This document shows, piece by piece, positions 18,643-29,720 of a stretch of DNA of 64,000 nt (the stretch's first letter is position 1; each line of letters opens with the position of its first letter). The notes under the pieces were generated by a model that worked only from the letters and a program-made list of their open reading frames with translations, was not told where the DNA came from and did no database searches. Location of the stretch: contig CAWGBN010000002.1 in the NCBI GenBank assembly GCA_963820825.1, positions 320,001 through 384,000 of the forward strand. Reading direction: 5' to 3'. This DNA is from Vulcanimicrobiota bacterium (GTDB taxonomy: Bacteria > Vulcanimicrobiota > Vulcanimicrobiia > Vulcanimicrobiales > Vulcanimicrobiaceae). The position numbers and the translations under genes were made by a program.

Positions 18643-18918
18643 TTGATTCCAGCCGCACGGCTGCTTTATCTCGCCGTCGCGCCGCCACAGGGTGCGCTCC
18701 TGGGCATGGTGTTGGTGACCGCGCCCCGGCCGCTCTATCCGCACTACGCGGTCGCGGCCGGTTCACTGAAAGCCGCGCTCGCTGATCAAGGAAACGCCGC
18801 CGCGCTGATGTGGATCCTCGGCGGCGCCGTCGTCTTCGGCGCGTTGCTCGTTACGCTCGGGCGCTGGGCTCGGCGCGAACGGGAACCGTCGCTTCTGCGT
18901 CGAACCGGGGCGGCCTAG
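18643..18918 (+). pseudogene. C-terminal fragment of a CtaG-type (caa3) cytochrome c oxidase assembly protein
   Basis: RLLYLAVAPPQGALLG...APRPLYPHY...ALADQGNAAALMWILGG; N-terminal portion absent. Confidence 0.65.
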
Positions 18919-18956
18919 CTTGCGGTGCTTTGCAACTGCAGAAAGGGATCGCGATC

Positions 18957-20000
18957 GTGCGCTTTTTACACATGACGTACGCGGCTGTCTCGACGCTCGC
19001 GCTGTTTTTGATTACGGGCTGCGCGCAGGATGGTACGCAGCCGGCCATCGTCGGTCAGCAAAACCAGGTCCGAGCGAAACACACGACGTCTTCATGTCCG
19101 TGCCTGTACGTCACCAACTGGGCGGGGCAATCGATTACCGTCTACCCAGTCGGCGTTACCGGTAACGTAGCACCCATAGCAGTCATCGCCGGTCCTCAGA
19201 CCGGAATCGACCTCCCATACGGCGTCGCGTTGGATGCAAGCGGCAACATCTACGTGACAAATTTTGACTACAACTCCGTCACGATCTATGCCGCCGGTGC
19301 TAACGGCAACGTCATGCCAACCGCGACCATCATGGGCTCGAATACTAAGCTGCTCGACCCCGAGGGCATCGGCATCGATCCTAGCAACGGGAACATTTAC
19401 GTTCAGAGCTTAAACGGTCCGAGTGGCAACCCCAGCATCCTGGTCTTTGCCGCCGGTTCAAACGGCAACGTCAGCCCGGCTGAAGTAATCGAAGGTTCAA
19501 AAACGGGGCTGACCGACCCCGTCGATCTTACGTTGGACGGCGGCGCAAACATCTACGATGTCGACGTCGCCAATTTCATCAACGTCTATGCCGCAGGCAC
19601 TACCGGCAACAAAAGGCCAGCGCGCAAGATCAAAGGCGGTCTCACCAAACTGAACCTTCCCTTCGGCGTGACGGTTGACTCCAGTTTCAACGTCTACGCA
19701 GCTAACAACGGCGGCGGCGAGAGCAGTATCACCGTTTATGCCTCCGGCGCAACCGGAAATGTCGCCCCCATCCAACGCATCAAGGGTCGCAAGATTGAAC
19801 TAACAGATCTCCACGGCGTCGCCGTCGACAGTTCACGCAACATCTACGCTTCCAACGGTGCCGGCGAAGTGCGCTCCTGTTCGGGCTGCAACTTCATAGC
19901 CGTCTATGCCTCCGGCGCGACCGGCAACGTAGCGCCCATCAGGGTAATCGCGGGAACGAATACAGGTCTCGACGGTCCGAGCGGGCTCACGATTCACTAA
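18957..20000 (+). CDS. NHL-like beta-propeller lipoprotein (CPC family, paralogue 4)
   Basis: GTG start after AAAGGGA; lipobox ITGC; TTSSCPCLYV; repeated YASGATGNVAPI units. Confidence 0.88.
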   Translation: MRFLHMTYAAVSTLALFLITGCAQDGTQPAIVGQQNQVRAKHTTSSCPCLYVTNWAGQSITVYPVGVTGNVAPIAVIAGPQTGIDLPYGVALDASGNIYVTNFDYNSVTIYAAGANGNVMPTATIMGSNTKLLDPEGIGIDPSNGNIYVQSLNGPSGNPSILVFAAGSNGNVSPAEVIEGSKTGLTDPVDLTLDGGANIYDVDVANFINVYAAGTTGNKRPARKIKGGLTKLNLPFGVTVDSSFNVYAANNGGGESSITVYASGATGNVAPIQRIKGRKIELTDLHGVAVDSSRNIYASNGAGEVRSCSGCNFIAVYASGATGNVAPIRVIAGTNTGLDGPSGLTIH

Positions 20001-20299
20001 AGAATTGCGGGGCATGAAGAATAGAACTTTAGATCCGCATTTGCTGCCATTGAGTCGCTGGCCTCGCGTTCGATGCAGTTCTCGCGCGCGTGCGCGCGCG
20101 AAGCTTCTAAATCACGTAAGCTTCCTGTACGGGCTCGACGGATGGCGCCCGGTGGGAACCATGTAGAACCCCGGATTCCCGGTAAGTCGACGCCTGTGGA
20201 ACCGCAGCAAGTGAGGCAAGGATTCTCATCTCCCCTGGCGTTCTCCGAAATCGCGACGATGCGCTTAAAGGCAAAGCGCCGACTCGGCGGGGCAGTGCG

Positions 20300-20535
20300 G
20301 ACTTAGGCTGCACATGGCTGCACCCAAATCGCGACGGCACAAAAGACAAACCCCTGCAAAGGAGCCTTATTTTGCAGGGGTTTTCAAACACTCCGGATGC
20401 TGGACTCGAACCAGCGACCCGCTGATTAACAGGACTTTACAACGTCACGGTTCCATGCGGTTTCTCGACAGACTCGCCTTCTCTGGCTCTCATGTTTCCA
20501 CGATTTCTCACCTATTGGCTGCACAATGGCTGCAC
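20300..20535. repeat. att site 7: complete attP-like junction (left arm, terminator, 42-bp core, right arm)
   Basis: 20300-20327 identical to 31650-31677; core 20391-20432 identical to 31718-31759; arm repeats at 20305-20323 and 20516-20535. Confidence 0.92.
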
Positions 20536-20613
20536 AACAGTTCAACGAATCGAAAACCCCGCGCCCCTGGTTAACAACCAACGTAACACCGTTTTCTACG
20601 TCGCAGCTCCCAA

Positions 20614-21230
20614 TCAGGGCACAAGCCCAGGTGAAGCTGCCGCACCAGCTGGGTCAGTGATGCCGTAGCTGCTTCCTAGAGTCGAGACTAGATCGCCAGA
20701 AGGATAATCGAGGACGTCGACGGTGCTTAAATCGGCCACAAACAACAATTTGCCGTCTTTGGAAAGCGAAGGGCGATAGCAATCTTCGAAGCCCTTGTAG
20801 CGCCTATTAACGCGGTTAAATGGAGGCTTGATAAGGTCAAGCGTGCTCTTGCCCCCTGGCCTGCCTTGATCGCAAACCAGAAGCATTACCACTCCCGTCA
20901 AAGATAAGGCCCCCGGCAAAATGAAACGCCGCCCCCAGGAATATCGGCGTTGTCGAACCCGCTGGAAATTCTTTAATGCGCCGGCGCCTGTCACGTGGCT
21001 ATTGTACGAAACGTACAGGTCACCGTTTGTGTCGACGGCGACGCCCTGGGGTGCGCCGCCCACTATGTACTGACTCTTGATGCTCTGGCTGCACTGGGAA
21101 TAGCTATACACGTATCCGTACCCACCGTAATTATAGTCGGCGGCATAGACATTCCCCGAGCGATCGACCGTCACAGCGATGGGATCCACGACGCCCGCGT
21201 AGTAGCTGCACGACGGCGCTGAAGCACCTG
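20614..21230 (-). pseudogene. N-terminally truncated, frameshifted beta-propeller protein
   Basis: PQGVAVDTNGDLYVSYN and VDVLDYPSGDLVSTLGSSYGITDP resemble the 28740/30446 proteins; no signal peptide. Confidence 0.6.
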
Positions 21231-21393
21231 GCGGAGACGTCGGCCCGAGACGTCGTCGCCGTGTAGATGCGACAGACTCGCGTTTGCGCTCTCAGGTGTT
21301 CAATAGGCGCAAGTGAGCGTCTCGTCGGGCCTGACGCGTAGCGCAAAGTCCCGACCGTCAAGCGCGACGGGTTTCGAGGTCAGCGGCCCGATT

Positions 21394-22598
21394 TTAGAAG
21401 CTATGGAGCCAGTTCTCGGTCCCGGCGGTCGTCATGCTAAATACCGTGCCGTGACCGTTGGCGCCCCCATTTACCGTAGTACCGTAGAGTACGCCGCCGA
21501 CATTTAGCAGCGTCCCCGTGGGGTTGGCGCCGTCTGGGCCGCCGAAATTATAGAGCACGTGATACGTGCCGGTCGGCGTGATAGAGAAGAATACTCCGTC
21601 ATCGTGCGTGCCACCCCTTACAGTTGTGCCGTAGAACGTATTTCCGACATCAGCTAGGCCCCCACCAGGATAATTACCATCCCATCCGCCGGCGAAAGGA
21701 TGCAGTAGCTGAAACGTTCCGGTCGTGCTGATCCTGAAAATACTGCCGTAGAGGCTGCAGTTGTCCCCAAATGCCGTCCCGTAGAGCCACTGACCATGCT
21801 TAATCATTGTTCCGGTGGGGTTATCGCCATAGCCTCCGCCGGGGAAACTGTAGAGAACCGTCTCTATCCCGGACGGGGTCAGAGAGAATATCGTTCCGCA
21901 GTCAGAGGTACCGCCGTTTTCCGTCGTTCCGTACAGCGTACCATTGTCTTTGGTCAAGCCACTCGCCGGCCCGTAGGCATCGGGAAAGTCTTGAAAACTC
22001 CAGAGCAAGCTCTCGGGACCGCCGGCGGGCATCTGAAAAACCGCCCCATAGTTCATCGATCCTCCGAACGAGGTGACACCGTAGAACGTCCCGTTTTGCA
22101 CGACCAGACTGCCGTTGTTTGGCCACTGGCCGTCGGACGGGGCACCCTGAAAACTGTGCTTCACCGTTTCGACACCGGAGGTCGTAACCCGAAAAACGGT
22201 TCCAAGATTCTGAGTGCCGCCTCCTGAGGTAGTGCCCCACAGCGCGTTGCCGCGTTGCACGAGACCTGCAGGGGGTCCCGCGCCGTCCGGTGTTCCTTGG
22301 AAGCTGTAGACTATGTTCTCTACGCCCGTCGTCGTAATGGAGAACACGCTGCCCAGGTTGTGGCTGCCTCCAGAAGACGTCGTTCCGTAGAGAACCCCTC
22401 CGACATCGATTAACCCTGCTCTCGGACTGGCTCCATCGGTCGATGGCGTCACGCGATGGTGTCCCGCAAGGGACTTCTGATCCCCACGTTCGGCCGTCCC
22501 ACATTCATACTTGTCGTCGGCGGGCCCGCATTCGAACCGCAATCGGTCAAACCAAGCCCAATCAAAACCAGCAGCACGCCTACAAGACTCTTAGCCAT
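21394..22598 (-). CDS. GloVer-type choice-of-anchor repeat protein (frameshift near N-terminus)
   Basis: Repeated LYGTT..GG..N.G.VF units; ATG at 22598 followed by a signal-like segment. Confidence 0.8.
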
Positions 22599-23077
22599 GC
22601 CTTTAATCCTTCCGCCGACCCCGTAGTCGGCTTAAGCTCCTAGTAGTAGCGCAGTATCTGTTCGCGTCCGGTGCTTGTAACCTTGCAAACCTCGCCGCGG
22701 CGTTCGATTGGATTCGCTCCTACTCGTCACCGGCGAAAGTCAGAGCACTCTGTATGGTTGTTGGCTCAGTGGCGCCCGCCCAATCAAGCATGAGCGGCCG
22801 TTTGAACGAGAAGTCCGATGCTACCGCAACACCATGTTGCCGATAGAAAGCGGCGCGCCGTTGATTGTCTTCCTTCAGTGGCAAAACCGCGACCTTGATC
22901 ATGAACGCTGCGTAGCGCTCCGCGCTAAGAGATGACATGTATCGAGCCTCGGCTTCTGCGTTCTCAAAACTCTGCACGTCCCTCGGTGAAATTACAAATG
23001 CGAGGACTGACGTGAGGTGAGAAAACGGCTCAAGTTGAAACTGTGAGTTCCGGGCCTCTGGCCCTAAGGAGACTCAC

Positions 23078-23374
23078 GTGAAAAAGACTCGCTTCACCGA
23101 AGCGCAGATCGTCGCGATCCTCAAAGAGCTCGACGCCGGCACGACCGCGACGGAGCTTGGTCGCCGGCACGGAATTCATGCCAATACGATCCGCCTGTGG
23201 CGCGATAAGTACGCCGGGATGCAAACCAGCGATCTGGTGCGCATGAAACAGCTCGAGGCCGAGAACACGCAGATGCGGCGAATCATCACCCGCCAAGCCC
23301 TCGAGATCGACGCCGTCAGGGAGCTGATCTCAAAAAACGGCTGGGGCCCGAGCAGCGCAAAGAAGCGGTCGTAG
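23078..23374 (+). CDS. IS3-family transposase OrfA
   Basis: MKKTRFTEAQIVAILKE HTH-type start; AAAAAAC slippery-like site near the end. Confidence 0.9.
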   Translation: MKKTRFTEAQIVAILKELDAGTTATELGRRHGIHANTIRLWRDKYAGMQTSDLVRMKQLEAENTQMRRIITRQALEIDAVRELISKNGWGPSSAKKRS

Positions 23375-23890
23375 CGTTGCACACCAAGGGCCTGTCCACG
23401 TTCCGGGCTTGCGCTATCGTTGCGCAGCCCTACCGATCGCTGTTCAACAAGAAAAAGGCTGAAAAGCGCGCAGACACGCGGCTGAAGGAATGCATCGGCA
23501 AACATGCGCAGCAGCGGCCGCGGTTCGGCTGGCGCCGGCTGTTGATCCTTGCGCGCCGTGAAATACCTGGCACCGGGGAGTACCGATTTCGAAGGCTTTA
23601 TAAGGCTCTTGGGCTTCAAGTACGGCCTCGAAAGAAGCGCAAGGTCAACTACGTCCGCGGAAACGCGATTTCGACCGTTAGTCGCCCCAACGAACGGTGG
23701 TCGATCGACTTCATGCACGACAGTCTTGGGAACGGCCGGGCCTACCGTACGATGAACATCGTTGACGACTTCACGAGCGAATGCCTCGCTTTGGAGCCGG
23801 CGTTCTCGTTTGGTTCTCATGATGTGACGCGTTGCTTCGAGGAGATCGCGTTCGAACGCGGCTTGCCGGCCGCCGTGCGTTTTGACAACG
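23371..23890 (+). pseudogene. IS3-family transposase OrfB, 5' part (interrupted)
   Basis: RPNERWSIDFMHD...IVDDFTSECLA...VRFDN, broken at the DNG motif. Confidence 0.88.
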
Positions 23891-25446
23891 AGCTAAGTAC
23901 GAAAGTCAACCCCACTAGTAGGCATAACGATGCCCGTCGACAGCAAAGCCGAGCTTGCACACCCTTGCCGAGATGCCCCTCGACGACGCAATAGCTCCAA
24001 CCATGATGACACAAGGTCTCGGAAACGAGCCTTCACCGAGCTCAAAACGGAGTTTGCTGCCGATCGGGAGATCCGAGCATTATCTACGAGGTCGTAGTCG
24101 CCTCAACGGCCCAGCGAAGGGATTCTCCCGTCGTGCACCGCCGCTTCGAAATAGTGGCGGTACTCTTTTCCAGATTTGATCAAGCCGTAAGCGACGCGCG
24201 CAATCTTCGCTGCTACGGCGACATACGCTCTTCTTTTGAGATCGGCATCCAGTGGATCGCGACGAACGTAGTCGTCGTACTTTTTCCGAAACGAGTTTCG
24301 GCGCTGATTGATGGCAGCATTGGCTGCCATCCAGAAGGCCCATCGCAGTCGAGCATTGCCGCGTTTGGAGAGCTGCGGTCGGCCGCGTGACGTTCCGGAT
24401 TGCATCGTCGACAAAGAAAGGCCACAGTAGTTAAGAAATTTGCGATGGTGGCTGAAGCGGCGTAAATCTCCGCCTTCAGCGAGAACCGTTAGAGCAACAA
24501 TAGGGCCGATTCCAGGGATAGAGCGCAGGCGCTGATAATCGATGTTGTTCTCGAGTTGTGCGTCAATGAGCTCCTGAAGCTGCCGTCGAAGCTTCATGAG
24601 GCCGATGTACTGCTCAATCGCGAGTTGGAACATCTGGGCGGCCTGCGAATCCGCCGCCACTGGAATTCCCACGCTTTCCTTGGCAATTTCGTAGTAGCTG
24701 GCGACGAGACTTTGCCGAGATGTAAAATGCCCTCCCGCTGCAGTAAACCTTTTGACGAATGTCCTTTTGGTATATTGAAGGACCGTGGAAGGGCATGGCG
24801 CTATGCGCATGACCTCCAAGAACCACTCGCCGCGCGGATTGCTCAGGAAGGGCTCTGCTTCCGGGAAGTACAGCGGCAAATAGTGCGTCATCAGCGAATG
24901 GTAGGCTCGCGTCTTTCGGTCGGTGATCTGCCGATAGGTACCGAGCAGTTCCTGAAGATCTTGGTTGCCACGTTGCAGTGGATCGGCGAACACCTGCGTT
25001 GTACCGCTCTTGAGCAAATGCAGAATCACCTGCGCATCCTTCGGATCGTTTTTATCCCACGAGTTGAACAGCGCTTCTCTCGTCCGATTTGTAGCGATCG
25101 ACGATACGAAATGAACGCGGTGGCCTCGCCGGAGCAAGAAGTTCGCCAGGGGTCGGTGATAGTCTCCGGTTGGTTCCAGCGCGACCTCGCAGGGAAGATG
25201 CGGCGCCAGAATCCCTGCCAACTCGTCGAAACCTTCTTGCGTGTTTGGAACTGTCAAACGCCGGCGAATGCCGGCCTCGTCCTCCAGCAGCGCCACGTGT
25301 CGGTTTTTGGCGACGTCGATTGCGAGCCAGGCGGGCGTCGTTGGAGCAGCACGGAACTTTGCCATAGGGTCGTTGCCTCCAGCGGAGATGAGTCAGATAC
25401 ACCTCCGTTCGCCATGGGGGCAGCGCCCCGTCTTGTATGTATCACG
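23891..25446 (-). mobile_element. IS110-family element (long non-coding end downstream of the transposase)
   Basis: Removing it restores GAC AAC GGC CCA GAG TTT (DNGPEF) of the host orfB; ACG present at both junctions. Confidence 0.9.
24103..25365 (-). CDS. IS110-family DEDD transposase/recombinase
   Basis: AIDVAK, LEPTGDYH, KNDPKDA, SIPGIG, QSG and SKRGNARLR motifs; intact 420 aa. Confidence 0.95.
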   Translation of the reverse strand: MAKFRAAPTTPAWLAIDVAKNRHVALLEDEAGIRRRLTVPNTQEGFDELAGILAPHLPCEVALEPTGDYHRPLANFLLRRGHRVHFVSSIATNRTREALFNSWDKNDPKDAQVILHLLKSGTTQVFADPLQRGNQDLQELLGTYRQITDRKTRAYHSLMTHYLPLYFPEAEPFLSNPRGEWFLEVMRIAPCPSTVLQYTKRTFVKRFTAAGGHFTSRQSLVASYYEIAKESVGIPVAADSQAAQMFQLAIEQYIGLMKLRRQLQELIDAQLENNIDYQRLRSIPGIGPIVALTVLAEGGDLRRFSHHRKFLNYCGLSLSTMQSGTSRGRPQLSKRGNARLRWAFWMAANAAINQRRNSFRKKYDDYVRRDPLDADLKRRAYVAVAAKIARVAYGLIKSGKEYRHYFEAAVHDGRIPSLGR

Positions 25447-25523
25447 GCCCAGAGTTTACGAGTCGCGCGATGCTGCAATGGGGTGCAGAGCAGAAAGTCC
25501 ATCTACACTTCATCGAACCCGGC

Positions 25524-26890
25524 GATTACGTCCCGGCGCGTGGTGTATGAACTGCGACCCCGACGAAGTGGGCGATCAGCTGATAACGGCCGAAAGCCTG
25601 GCGATCTGATTGTCGCTTACGGCGTTCATTCCTTCGAGCTGCATGTACCGCCGCTGCAACTGCCATTCATCGTTCTGTTCCAGCAGCAGCGCACCGACGA
25701 GTCGTACGATCGCGGCCTCGTTGGGAAAGATGCCGACGACGTCAGTCCGGCGTTTGATCTCGGCGTTGATGCGCTCGAGCGGGTTGGTTGAAGCGAGTTG
25801 TTTGCGGTGGGCTTTGGGAAAGGCCATGAAGGCGAGAACGTCTTCTTCGGAATCGTCCAACATCGCTGAGAGCTTGGGAAACTTCTCGCGGAGTTGATCG
25901 GCGACGGTGCGCCATTGTTGGTGCGCCGCCTCGGCCGTTTCTTGAGCGAACACCGTATTGATCAGCGCACGAACCATTTCTCGCTGCCCTTTGCCGGCGT
26001 GGGCTAGCGCGTTGCGCATGAAGTGCACGCGGCAGCGCTGCCACGTCGCCTTGAAGACTTTGGCGATCGCGGCTTTGAGACCGATGTGGCGAATCGGAGA
26101 TCACGAACTTGACGCCACGCAGTCCGCGCCGTCTCAGGCTTCTGAGAAACTCGCGTCCAGAACGGCTCGGCTTCGCTGGGACCCGTCGCCAAGCCTAAAA
26201 GCTCGCGCGTACCGTCGGTATTGACGCCAACGGCCAGTATTACGGCGACCGAAACGATGCGGCCCGACGCGCGCACTTTCACGTACGTCGCGTCGATCCA
26301 CAGATACGGCCAGTCGCCCTCGATCGGCCGATTGAGAAACGCTTGCACGCGCTCGTCGATCTCGCTGCACAAGCGCGAGACTGGCTCTTGGAGATCCCCG
26401 TCATCCCCAGTGCCTTCACCAGTTCGTCAACCGAGCGGGTTGAGATGCCCTGAATATACGCTTCCTGGATCACCGCCGTCAGCGCTTTCTCGGCCGTGCG
26501 ACGAGGCTCCAGGAAGCCAGGGAAATAGCTGCCCTTGCGCAGCTTAGGGATGCGCAGATCGACTGCGCCGGTGCGCGTTTCCCAGAGCCGGTCGCGATAC
26601 CCGTTGCGGCAGTTCTCGCGAGGAGCGGCTCGCTCGCCATAGGCGGCGCCGCAGAGGGCCTCCACGTCCATCTCCATGAGTTTCTGGGCGGCGAGATGAA
26701 GCATGTCGCGCACGAGATCGACGTCGGGGCCCTTTTCAGCGAGCTCCGTAAGTGCGATACTGGTCTTGGCCATTGTGGGTTCCTTTCGTCGGTAGTTTCT
26801 TTGCAAAAACAACCTTCGCCGAAAGCCACGATGGCCGCTCTCTATCCTATGAGGGCGGCCCCTTCATACACCACGCCCTGGGACACGATC
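25524..26890 (-). mobile_element. IS256-family element
   Basis: Imperfect 28-bp IRs ending GCGTGGTGTATGAA; 8-bp TSD AACCCGGC at 25516-25523 and 26891-26898. Confidence 0.93.
25576..26773 (-). CDS. IS256-family transposase (frameshifted)
   Basis: [28 protein letters not shown] and [16 protein letters not shown] motifs in three frames. Confidence 0.9.
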
Positions 26891-27074
26891 AACCCGGCAA
26901 ACCAACGCAAAACGCCAAGATCGAATCGCTAAACGGCCCGATCCGAGACGAGCTGCTCAATGCCCACGTTTCACGACGATCTAAACGAGGCGCGGGCGCT
27001 TGCCGCAGTTGGAGAAAGGACTATAACGAGGTCCGGCCGCACTCGTCTCTCGGCGGCTTGACGCCGCTGGAGTA

Positions 27075-28344
27075 AGAGGTGGCCTCGGTTAGTCGGACAG
27101 CCTGATATGTGATGATTTCGCTCCCTCTGGGTCGAAAAGATCCGTGAAAAGGAGCAGTCATCTTGAAACGTTCTCGCCGCAACCACACGCCGGCCTTCAA
27201 GGCTAAGGTGGCGATCGCCGCGATCAAGGGCGATCAGACCGTCGCCGAGCTCGCCAAGCGCTTCGACGTCCATCCGAATTCGATCGTGCAGTGGAAAACC
27301 CAACTGCTCGAGCGAGCCGATGAAGCCTTCGATGGCGACGGACCAAAGCAGAACGGCCCCGATATCAAAGAGCTTCACGCCAAGATCGGCCAGTTAGCGC
27401 TGGAGAACGATTTTTTAGAACACGCGCTCGGACGTATCGACGGGTCGAGCGCAAAGCGATGATCGATCGCGACCACGCTTTGCCGCTCTCGCATCAAGCG
27501 GAGCTGCTGGACCTCTCTCGCAGCGGTCTTTACTACGGAGCCGTACCGGTCTCGGGCAGCGGATCTCGAACTCATGCGTGAGATCGATCGGCTGCACACC
27601 GACTACCCGTTCGCCGGCGCAAGAATGCTGCGCGACTTCCTGCGGCTCAGGGGCTATCGTGTCGGCCGCCGGCATATCGCGCGGCTGATGCGCCTGATGG
27701 GCATTGAAGCGCTCTATCGCAAGAAGAAAGGCACCAAGACCAATCCGGAGCACCCCGTCTTCCCCTACCTTCTTAGAAACCTCGTCATCGAACGCCCGAA
27801 TCACGTCTGGGCAGCGGATATCTCGTACATTCCGATGCGCCGCGGTTTCTTGTATTTGTTCGCGGTACTCGACTGGGCAACGCGACGGGTTCTGGCTTGG
27901 CGGCTCTCCAACAGCTTGACGACGGATTTCTGCATCGATGCCGTCGAGGAGGCGATCGCAAAGTACGGCTGTCCTGAAATCTTCAACACCGATCAAGGAT
28001 GCCAATTCACCGACAAGGATTTCGTCGGCATGCTCAAGACTACGAGATCGCGATCAGCATGGACGGCCGGGGCGCCTGGCGCGACAACGTCTTCGTCGAA
28101 CGCTTCTGGCGCTCGATTAAGTACGAAGAGGTCTATTTGCGTGCTTACGACTCTGCGAGCGAGGGTAAGCACTTCATCGGCCGCTACGATCGATTCTATA
28201 ACGCAAACCGACCGCATTCGTCGCTCGGCGGCCAAACGCCGGACGCGGTATACTTCAGTCAGGCCGACCAAAAAGGCGGCGTAACTGGCGGAGTCATCAC
28301 ATAACGGGTGCCGATTTCGTGTCCAAAAAACCGGCGCCACCTCT
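27075..28344 (+). mobile_element. Second IS3-family element (orfA 27163-27462, orfB ~27459-28284)
   Basis: IRs AGAGGTGGC..CGGTT....GGACA; 3-bp TSD GTA at 27072-27074 and 28345-28347; RPNHVWAADISYIPM, FNTDQG and DNVFVERFWRSIKYE motifs. Confidence 0.92.
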
Positions 28345-28739
28345 GTATGCGAACAAGTTCTAAAATGACACCTGCTCACAGTTCCTCCTTATGCTAAAGA
28401 CCACCTCACGTCAGAGCCGCCATCTTGTTTCCAACCAGAGCCTGGATAGGGGTAGATTGGCATAAGTGCCATGCCGCTTTGCAAAATCGCGAGTGCCTCA
28501 GTAACCGTAAGGTCGCCATCGGTCCAGCCATGATACGGTACGTAGCGTAAGCGACATTTGTACTTGCTGGCAAGCGAACTGATCCTTCCCGTGCTGAGGT
28601 TATACAGAACGCGTGTCGTTCCAGCTCAGATCTTTACGATTCCTTGAAGGTTTCACTGTAGAGTTAGCCTAACGGCTAGGCGCGTGGACGCTTTTGAGCC
28701 CCACGACTGCGTAGCGACCGATTCAGAAGGAGATTAGCT

Positions 28740-29720
28740 GTGCGATTTCATCTGCTAGCCAGCCTGGTTATCGCCGCAGCATTTGCCGGATGCTCGAGCG
28801 CGCAACTACAACGCGGAAACCCGGCGCTGCCGAGTTCGCCGTCAAAAAGCGTGCCGGCCGCCATCGGGCCGACGCCCGCGCCCATAGCGACGGCAAGTTG
28901 GGAGGACAGCATCTTTGTGGTCGACACCGGTGTCCCCGCCGTCAAGCTCTTTGCGCGCGGAACGTGGGCAGCCAATGGATCGTTCACCAATGGTGTGGCC
29001 AGTCCGTACGGCATCTGGAGTGATCAGAAATATCTCTACGTACCGAACAGTATCAACAATGGCGCGAACGTAGAGGAGTATCGCCCCGACGATACGACTC
29101 CAATTTTTACCTATACGAACGGCCTCTCGGGCAACGCGATTAATGTTTCGACTCAGGACCTTGGCGGGGTTCACTACGTGTTCGTCGTCGTTGGCAGTAC
29201 CGGCTTCGGTAACGGCTACGTTCGGCAGTTTCGTCGTGACACGAATACGGTCATAGCGACGTGCACGCCTAACGGCCAGGGGCAGTTTGGAGTTGCTGGC
29301 GTTGCGGTCGACCCCAACGGCAACGTATTTGTTTCGTACTACGGCTCCGACAGCTCTACGCACATTGTCGAGTACGTTGGGGGCCTGGGCGGATGCGCTC
29401 AAACTCCGCTGATCACGCTACCGACAGAGGGAGCAGATATGGTTCTAGATCATGCCGGTAGGCTGGTCCTTTGCGACGGTGTAAGCACCTGCGACATCAT
29501 CAATCCGCCGTATACGAGCATATCAGGGACGCTCGGCTCCGGCTTCGATGCTCCATTTTATGTTACGATAAATGCAACTAACCAACTCGCCTACGTGACC
29601 GACGGCTTAGGCGTTCACGTCCTCAGCTATCCCAGCGGCGCGCCGCTACATACAATCGGTGCTTCTGCTGGCCTACATAATCCCGTCGGCGTCGTAGATT
29701 GGTTCAACTACGGTTTTTGA
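28740..29720 (+). CDS. Secreted beta-propeller lipoprotein
   Basis: AGGAG RBS, lipobox FAGC; paralogue of 30446-31471. Confidence 0.8.
   Translation: MRFHLLASLVIAAAFAGCSSAQLQRGNPALPSSPSKSVPAAIGPTPAPIATASWEDSIFVVDTGVPAVKLFARGTWAANGSFTNGVASPYGIWSDQKYLYVPNSINNGANVEEYRPDDTTPIFTYTNGLSGNAINVSTQDLGGVHYVFVVVGSTGFGNGYVRQFRRDTNTVIATCTPNGQGQFGVAGVAVDPNGNVFVSYYGSDSSTHIVEYVGGLGGCAQTPLITLPTEGADMVLDHAGRLVLCDGVSTCDIINPPYTSISGTLGSGFDAPFYVTINATNQLAYVTDGLGVHVLSYPSGAPLHTIGASAGLHNPVGVVDWFNYGF

Follow-up and report, generated by a model that had tools for sequence, protein, structure and literature searches.

An IS110-family insertion sequence with a predicted bridge RNA in its right end and a target within the transposase genes of other insertion sequences

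An IS110-family element was identified on the minus strand of the window (the whole stretch of 64,000 nucleotides that was analysed), and the best overall explanation, which we hold to be very probable, is that of an intact element whose right end encodes a bispecific bridge RNA and which is parasitic on other insertion sequences. Judged from conservation and base pairing, the predicted RNA is a genuine bridge RNA of the IS621 type, carried by an element of the IS110 group, situated at the right end and overlapping the recombinase gene.

The element (23888..25443, with the donor core at the right end included) consists of 1553 bp between two 3-nt junction repeats, and its ends are identical in four genomic copies with three different flanks. 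A short left non-coding end of 78 nt (25366..25443, minus strand) and a right non-coding end of 212 nt downstream of the recombinase (23891-24102, minus strand) were identified, along with traits of the IS110 family, namely the lack of terminal inverted repeats and of a true target duplication, a short shared core and a fixed target motif. The element was found to be interrupting orfB of a host IS3-family element, of which orfA and the N-terminal part of orfB up to D-N lie at 23078..23889 (plus strand; PF01527; PF13276 and PF00665), the rve match ending at D-N at profile position 73-74, and the remainder of orfB at 25446..27075 (plus strand; PF13683 on 26752-27072). The proposal of the sequence-only reading that removal of the element restores its target was confirmed, the flanks being in frame as ...RFDN and GPEFTSRAMLQW... 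(GPEFTSRAM...) of orfB. The left target half (25444..25452, minus strand) contains the G-P-E codons of IS3 on the plus strand together with the target-derived core, and the right target half (23884..23887, minus strand) the Asp codon on the plus strand, which is the second D of DDE.

An IS256-family element at 25524-26890, with an 8-bp direct repeat, PF00872 on both pieces and a frameshifted transposase, in turn disrupts the remainder of orfB. Positions 23030-28380 of the window can be described as a nested island, in which an IS3 is split by an IS110 and also by an IS256. A second IS3 follows in the island (27163-28284), with its own motif, TDQGCQF, unoccupied. The island is flanked by secreted beta-propeller-like repeat proteins (18810-22542, 28740-29720), one of the three tested having an NHL/SBBP match.

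The recombinase of 420 aa (24103..25365, minus strand) has PF01548 (E 7.6e-21) and PF02371 (E 8.8e-28) in one ORF and possesses the D-E-D-D tetrad as well as the C-terminal SG serine. Residues D17-E64-D107-D110 and S323 align to the catalytic residues of IS621 (match to 8wt6 at E 4e-19), with D17 and E64 kept in 72 of 73 homologues and D107 and D110 in all 73. Homologue set 1 consisted of the best 80 of 583 confirmed genome matches (45-78% identity), whose record titles span about 15 phyla, the closest being Eremiobacterota. About 160 homologues from many phyla were found to have a near-invariant target guide and to be inserted at the same target motif, mostly in rve-type transposase genes. 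Plasmid matches at E<=1e-40 (111 records) stop at 42% identity, and at this threshold the clade therefore looks discrete. No retargeted relative was found among the best 80 of 583 genome matches, the best 80 of 573 metagenome matches or the 2 viral matches.

The predicted bridge RNA comprises two stem-flanked internal loops and lies at about 23985..24140 (minus strand; ends approximate, with the covariance-model match at 23966-24140), its 5' part overlapping the ORF. Alignment of 39 homologues gave a consensus fold of four helices around the two loops, with 95.9% of cells paired and two-sided changes at 24 of 29 pairs. Helix 2, the inner GAGG/CCUC hairpin of the target-binding loop (24088..24104, minus strand), was 99.1% paired with 5/6 pairs compensatory, and helix 4, the inner hairpin of the donor-binding loop (24013..24033, minus strand), 96% paired with 6/7 compensatory. 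The score of this fold was not approached by any slid register, slid controls being at most 50% paired, nor by any of 500 shuffles, a control in which related sequences may outscore shuffles even without structure. The fold is argued to be real because the slid controls fail and compensatory pairs are many. In the held-out test the covariance model matched 74 of 86 sources, with ISEc21 and 11 loci that end before the RNA being missed, and Rfam gave no match at E<=1 over 23800-25500. Folding of the region had been suggested as a check; four covarying stems appeared in the consensus of the 39 homologues, whereas the single sequence folded no better than shuffles (z -1.07), with an MFE structure that departs from the consensus. 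Compared with the region initially put forward (23891-24125, or to 24140 for folding), the predicted RNA begins upstream of 24125, and its second, donor-binding loop had been missed. The ORF stop was located downstream of the left target guide in 67 of 74 elements, and the overlap between RNA and gene is therefore clade-wide. The RNA would begin within the last ~12 recombinase codons, either cut from the mRNA or from an internal start.

The left target guide (24106..24114, minus strand) comprises 9 nt with the core, and its letters are equal to those of the target half at 25444-25452. It forms part of an 11-bp copy of the target that had been noticed from the sequence, found here at 24104-24114 as the sole match in the window even when one mismatch was allowed. 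This copy had been placed at the start of the 3' non-coding end; it lies instead in the ORF, as the last codons L-G-R with the TGA stop at 24105-24103. As a guide, nine of its nucleotides stand while the last two bases are coincidental, as the two letters after the core vary among homologues (CG 23, TG 22, GA 16, AG 10, other 6; n=77), and the full 11-mer is not shared by the targets of the other three genomic copies. Those two bases would suit the suggestion that the 11-mer arose by chance or is a functionless remnant of captured target DNA. This is scarcely credible. A word of at least 11 nt in common with the 15-nt target was present in only 12 of 20,000 shuffles that preserved the dinucleotides of 23891-24125, none of 264 control tiles of the window reaches 10, and about 150 homologues, at 45-78% protein identity, retain both the motif and the fold. 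Conservation of the fold, together with the end predictions for the held-out set described below, refutes the suggestion.

The other elements of the early reading, namely the GAGG/CCUC hairpin (24104-24088), the GAUAAUG segment (24084-24078) and the TTGACT hexamer (23909-23904), were all found at the places given, and the identification of a target-binding loop agrees with the geometry of IS621, in which a 9-nt left guide ending in a 2-nt core is followed by a hairpin and by a right guide for the other strand. While complementarity to both target strands with overlap at the core is directly visible, we infer from it that the loop functions in target binding. It would pair with both strands of D-N-G-x codons in rve-type DDE transposase genes. 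The right target guide, GAUAAUG (24078..24084, minus strand), has U at the third positions of the Asp and Asn codons and is exact to the GAT-AA form at 3 of 4 genomic sites. The 3' motif was found within two mismatches in 77 of the 80 best genome homologues; AGATAATG, the right guide motif, was exact in 73 of these 77 and in 69/74 of the held-out set.

In the source genome, the four copies with identical ends were found at three IS3 genes, always at D-N-G codons, the targets being DNGPEF in two different genes and DNGPEN in both copies of a third, and empty copies of two of the three targets are present elsewhere (C8:392428, C2:91080). The conserved DNGPEF codons of IS3 transposases had been proposed as a possible target, and the targeting of D-N-G codons is borne out by all four genomic copies and most homologues. 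Two copies on contig C6 (621960-623532 and 628000-629569) lie ~4.5 kb apart in opposite orientation, and one of them differs at 21 places, frameshifts among them, through either decay or read error. The copy on contig C5 has one C missing in the RNA region.

A first count of homologue junctions (DNG in 52/53) was circular, as the search pattern held target letters, and was replaced with Pfam and donor-only tests. An open frame was present at 55 of 62 junctions, and 43 of these 55 downstream flanks matched Pfam rve, nearly all ending at profile position 73. Upstream flanks matched Pfam rve_3 in 45 of 59 cases (L022 left out), and 46-47 of 59 flanks were IS3/IS481-like by NCBIfam, with L016 looking like IS30. 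For the held-out metagenome set, with ends predicted from the donor loop alone, the Asn/Asp half was found after 55 of 58 right-end candidates (57/73 loci) and the Gly/Asn half before a left-end candidate in 59 of the 62 loci with a candidate (79 candidates in total).

Individual loci showed some variation. Homologue L034 lies at D-N-G-R-E-L of a gene for a Si-specific NAD(P) transhydrogenase, a true off-target site that retains the Glu codon. The flanks of L015 seem to be of different transposase types (IS481-like and IS3-like), suggesting recombination between copies. The targets of L011, L017, L021 and L036 are integrase-like genes with D-S/C-D-N-G-S-E-F, whose N-terminal side is unrecognised by Pfam rve. 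In the source genome, the genes at C6:246336 and C6:243774, which we take to be sulfatase-like, carry S/T-T-D-N-G-P/A-E-N; one of them fits the whole guide when wobble is allowed and carries no insertion, making it a natural off-target candidate.

Synonymous variation among targets appears to be accommodated by wobble. The left guide is wobble-compatible with the third genomic target (DNGPEN), the two mismatches being G-T and U-G at third codon positions. Across the targets of homologues, the U of the right guide stands opposite GAC 39 times and GAT 19 times, and the G of the left guide opposite AAC 34 times and AAT 32 times. On pairing rules, U and G would be the only bases able to read both Asp and both Asn codons, respectively, and a single fixed guide could in this manner serve many divergent targets. 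For the third position of the Gly codon, a corresponding reading by wobble was discarded, as GGC/GGT occurred at 39 of 64 targets versus 206 of 341 in the background; codon use there equals the background, and the position is simply tolerated.

The guide explains specificity incompletely. Both target guide and target are near-invariant across homologues, and left-guide covariation was weak and did not replicate, with p=0.009 in set 1 and p=0.23 held out at position -3, and p=0.11 and then 0.011 at position -5 (8 positions tested, p values without phylogenetic correction). Beyond the subclade of this element, agreement with targets at positions -6 to -8 is at the level of shuffles, and in the majority of homologues only ~7 left-guide bases are in register. 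In the source genome the 8-nt core motif is present 214 times, 3 of these in integrase-like genes; the full wobble pattern of the element in the window leaves 6 empty genomic sites, of which 3 are integrase-like. Specificity in the remainder of the clade calls for additional recognition or for purifying selection. These same observations, that guides and targets are both invariant, that -6 to -8 are out of register although targets keep the Glu codon, and that a genome offers 214 core-motif sites, speak for a reading in which the RNA and donor loop are real and target choice is largely made by the protein, or reflects purifying selection against insertions outside insertion sequences, with the target guides being partly structural or protein-binding. 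We consider this quite improbable, as the invariant letters show exact complementarity to the two target strands, follow the order of IS621 and place wobble bases at the two variable codon positions, and as target loops have been reprogrammed in IS621 and ISEc21 (10.1101/2024.01.24.577089 and PMC11187229).

A further, rather doubtful proposal is that of a phylum-spanning clade locked on one protein-constrained codon motif, with an effectively codon-degenerate guide (wobble for Asp/Asn, tolerance for Gly) and extra specificity from a split left guide, in which a conserved (U/C)UC at the 5' edge of the loop would read the Glu codon after 3-4 nt are looped out. Retention of the Glu letters was observed at 105 of 107 integrase targets and in 3 of 9 independent non-integrase left flanks. 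In 86 of 111 cases the RNA has (U/C)UC at a distance of 4-5 nt from the following guide base, its first letter showing no covariation with the codon.

The donor-binding loop (24043-24001) contains the left donor guide (24035..24043, minus strand), which matches the right end of the element, and the right donor guide with core and a putative handshake GG (24001..24010, minus strand), complementary to the left end. The left donor dinucleotide agrees with that of the right end in 58 of 61 elements (shuffle mean 23.0), and complementarity between the right donor trinucleotide and the left end was observed in 53 of 63 (shuffle mean 22.5), neither count being reached in 10,000 shuffles; for these counts L078 was dropped as rearranged, while L018, although mis-parsed, was counted. 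On a tree of 73 proteins ~3 shared changes were found per donor guide (4+4 versus 5 joint; 8+5 versus 10 joint), and the independent events are therefore few but concordant. G-U intermediates in the changes of guide and end occur on the tree path to the element of the window. The donor loop, which would pair with the joined ends, covaries with both of them and is thus under selection to pair with donor DNA.

This last point bears on the idea that the abundant working RNA is a short processed one-loop piece, with both flanking target halves needed, as reported for ISEc11/ISEc21. SeekRNAs of 70-100 nt are reported to outnumber the long form (PMC11187229), and the target hairpin of the present element (about 24135-24060) is ~75 nt in length, a reading also compatible with processing into two pieces. 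Given the selection on the donor loop, we regard a one-loop RNA as rather unlikely and retain the bispecific bridge RNA.

At the left junctions the core is that of the target (36 CAT, 34 CGT; n=70), while right junctions always carry the donor core (CGT 62/62); in the held-out set the left junctions were 24 CAT and 34 CGT, with AT at none of 58 on the right. This pattern places the crossover 3' of the variable base, like that of IS621, for which both strands are cut after the core in the structures of PMC11208158. Recombination would thus take place just 3' of the 2-nt core, with the element entering the catalytic motif in antisense and splitting the host transposase. The GG of the donor loop after the core would, we infer, pair with the invariant target CC post-exchange, like a handshake guide.

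The TTGACT hexamer (23904..23909, minus strand), 13 nt from the right end, had been read as the -35 of a possible circle-junction promoter. In 29 of 63 elements TTGAC[A/T] stands at a distance of 12-13 nt from the right end, and at most 5 have it at any other distance from 8 to 24, while 34/63 have no -35; the -10 TAnnnT was found in 15 of 55, with 3/6 letters in the element of the window. The candidate promoter is half supported, with a -35 at a fixed distance and a weak -10 in the element of the window. The element may excise as a circle, bringing the right-end -35 to the left-end -10. In subclade L024-L053 and the alphaproteobacterial subclades the left end is extended to 120-165 nt and contains a GC-rich inverted repeat, and the right-end -35 has been lost, which hints at a different way of making the transcript.

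Bridge RNAs in the IS110 group usually lie at the left end, as described in the available sections of 10.1101/2024.01.24.577089, and the sections available of PMC11187229 describe some elements of this group with a 3' non-coding region and ISEc21 as targeting the second D of IS3 transposases. Comparison with IS621 (10.1101/2024.01.24.577089, PMC11208158, as far as covered, and PDB 8wt6) showed shared features, namely DEDD with a catalytic serine, two simple internal loops, the guide order LTG-RTG-LDG-RDG, a 9-nt left guide with 2-nt core, crossover 3' of the core and, in the element of the window, the handshake-like GG. IS621 is only distantly related (E 4e-19), with a recombinase of ~326 aa versus 420 aa here, and has its RNA in the left end rather than in the right end overlapping the ORF; its core is CT and its targets are REP elements, whereas here the core is GT/AT, the targets are transposase codons and the guide is fixed clade-wide.

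ISEc21 (PMC11187229) showed no significant BLASTP match to the recombinase (best 23% over 113 aa, E 0.11). It encodes 358 aa, has an upstream non-coding region and gives no match to the RNA model; its insertions are in the same orientation and lie between H-S-D and Q-G-S-Q-Y, unlike the antisense insertion at D-N-G-x-E-F described here. Placement of the present element in the ISEc21 cluster (345-385-aa recombinase, upstream non-coding region) was rejected on that E value and the RNA-model miss. From these comparisons, the codon shared by ISEc21 and the ISRel25/ISMex12 group is a case of convergence and not kinship. ISRel25 and ISMex12 are separate elements with recombinases 46-48% identical to that of the window and RNA-model matches of 98 and 92 bits, and a copy of ISRel25 sits at D-N-G-T-E-L. 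Both share the WDKND motif with ISYps2 (supplement 6 of PMC11187229, in the part covered), which probably belongs to their clade. Like members of the IS1111 group (ISEc11, ISPa11), the element carries its guide RNA in a long non-coding end on the 3' side, with 212 nt downstream of the recombinase and 78 nt upstream; recombinases of that group are 330-350 aa in length versus 420 aa, and the guide order here is left-then-right as in the IS110 group. Membership of the IS1111 group was rejected, as subterminal inverted repeats of 7-17 bp were absent, the longest inverted word shared between the 30-nt ends being 5 nt and off-register.

No account of the guide or target of this clade was found in the literature searched, PMC3297565 included for the part covered, the scope of the search ending short of ISFinder, subscription papers, figures and bioRxiv supplements. 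Among the names ISRel25, ISMex12 and ISYps2, the last is mentioned in that literature, with neither target nor guide, and the covered parts of 10.64898/2026.10.21.760802, 10.64898/2026.08.14.744561 and 10.1101/2025.05.14.653916 make no mention of IS3.

Bridge RNAs, IS110 elements with a 3' non-coding end and the targeting of the second D by ISEc21 are already published, and the mechanism described in 2024 is unchanged. The new part is a second, unrelated IS110 lineage that has converged on the catalytic-aspartate codon of DDE transposases in opposite orientation; a distant bridge-recombinase scaffold with a GT/AT core is also added. If the split-guide proposal is true, its guide geometry would be new and the clade would act as a general means of inactivating IS3/IS481/IS30 transposases. 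The clade provides natural material for studying how RNA guides deal with synonymous variation, where the crossover lies (target core at the left, donor core at the right) and how guides overlap their own gene. The whole ISRel25/ISMex12 clade probably lives as a parasite of other insertion sequences, for which the catalytic codon would be a harmless landing place, renewed as insertion sequences spread, in a target that is hardly free to mutate away.
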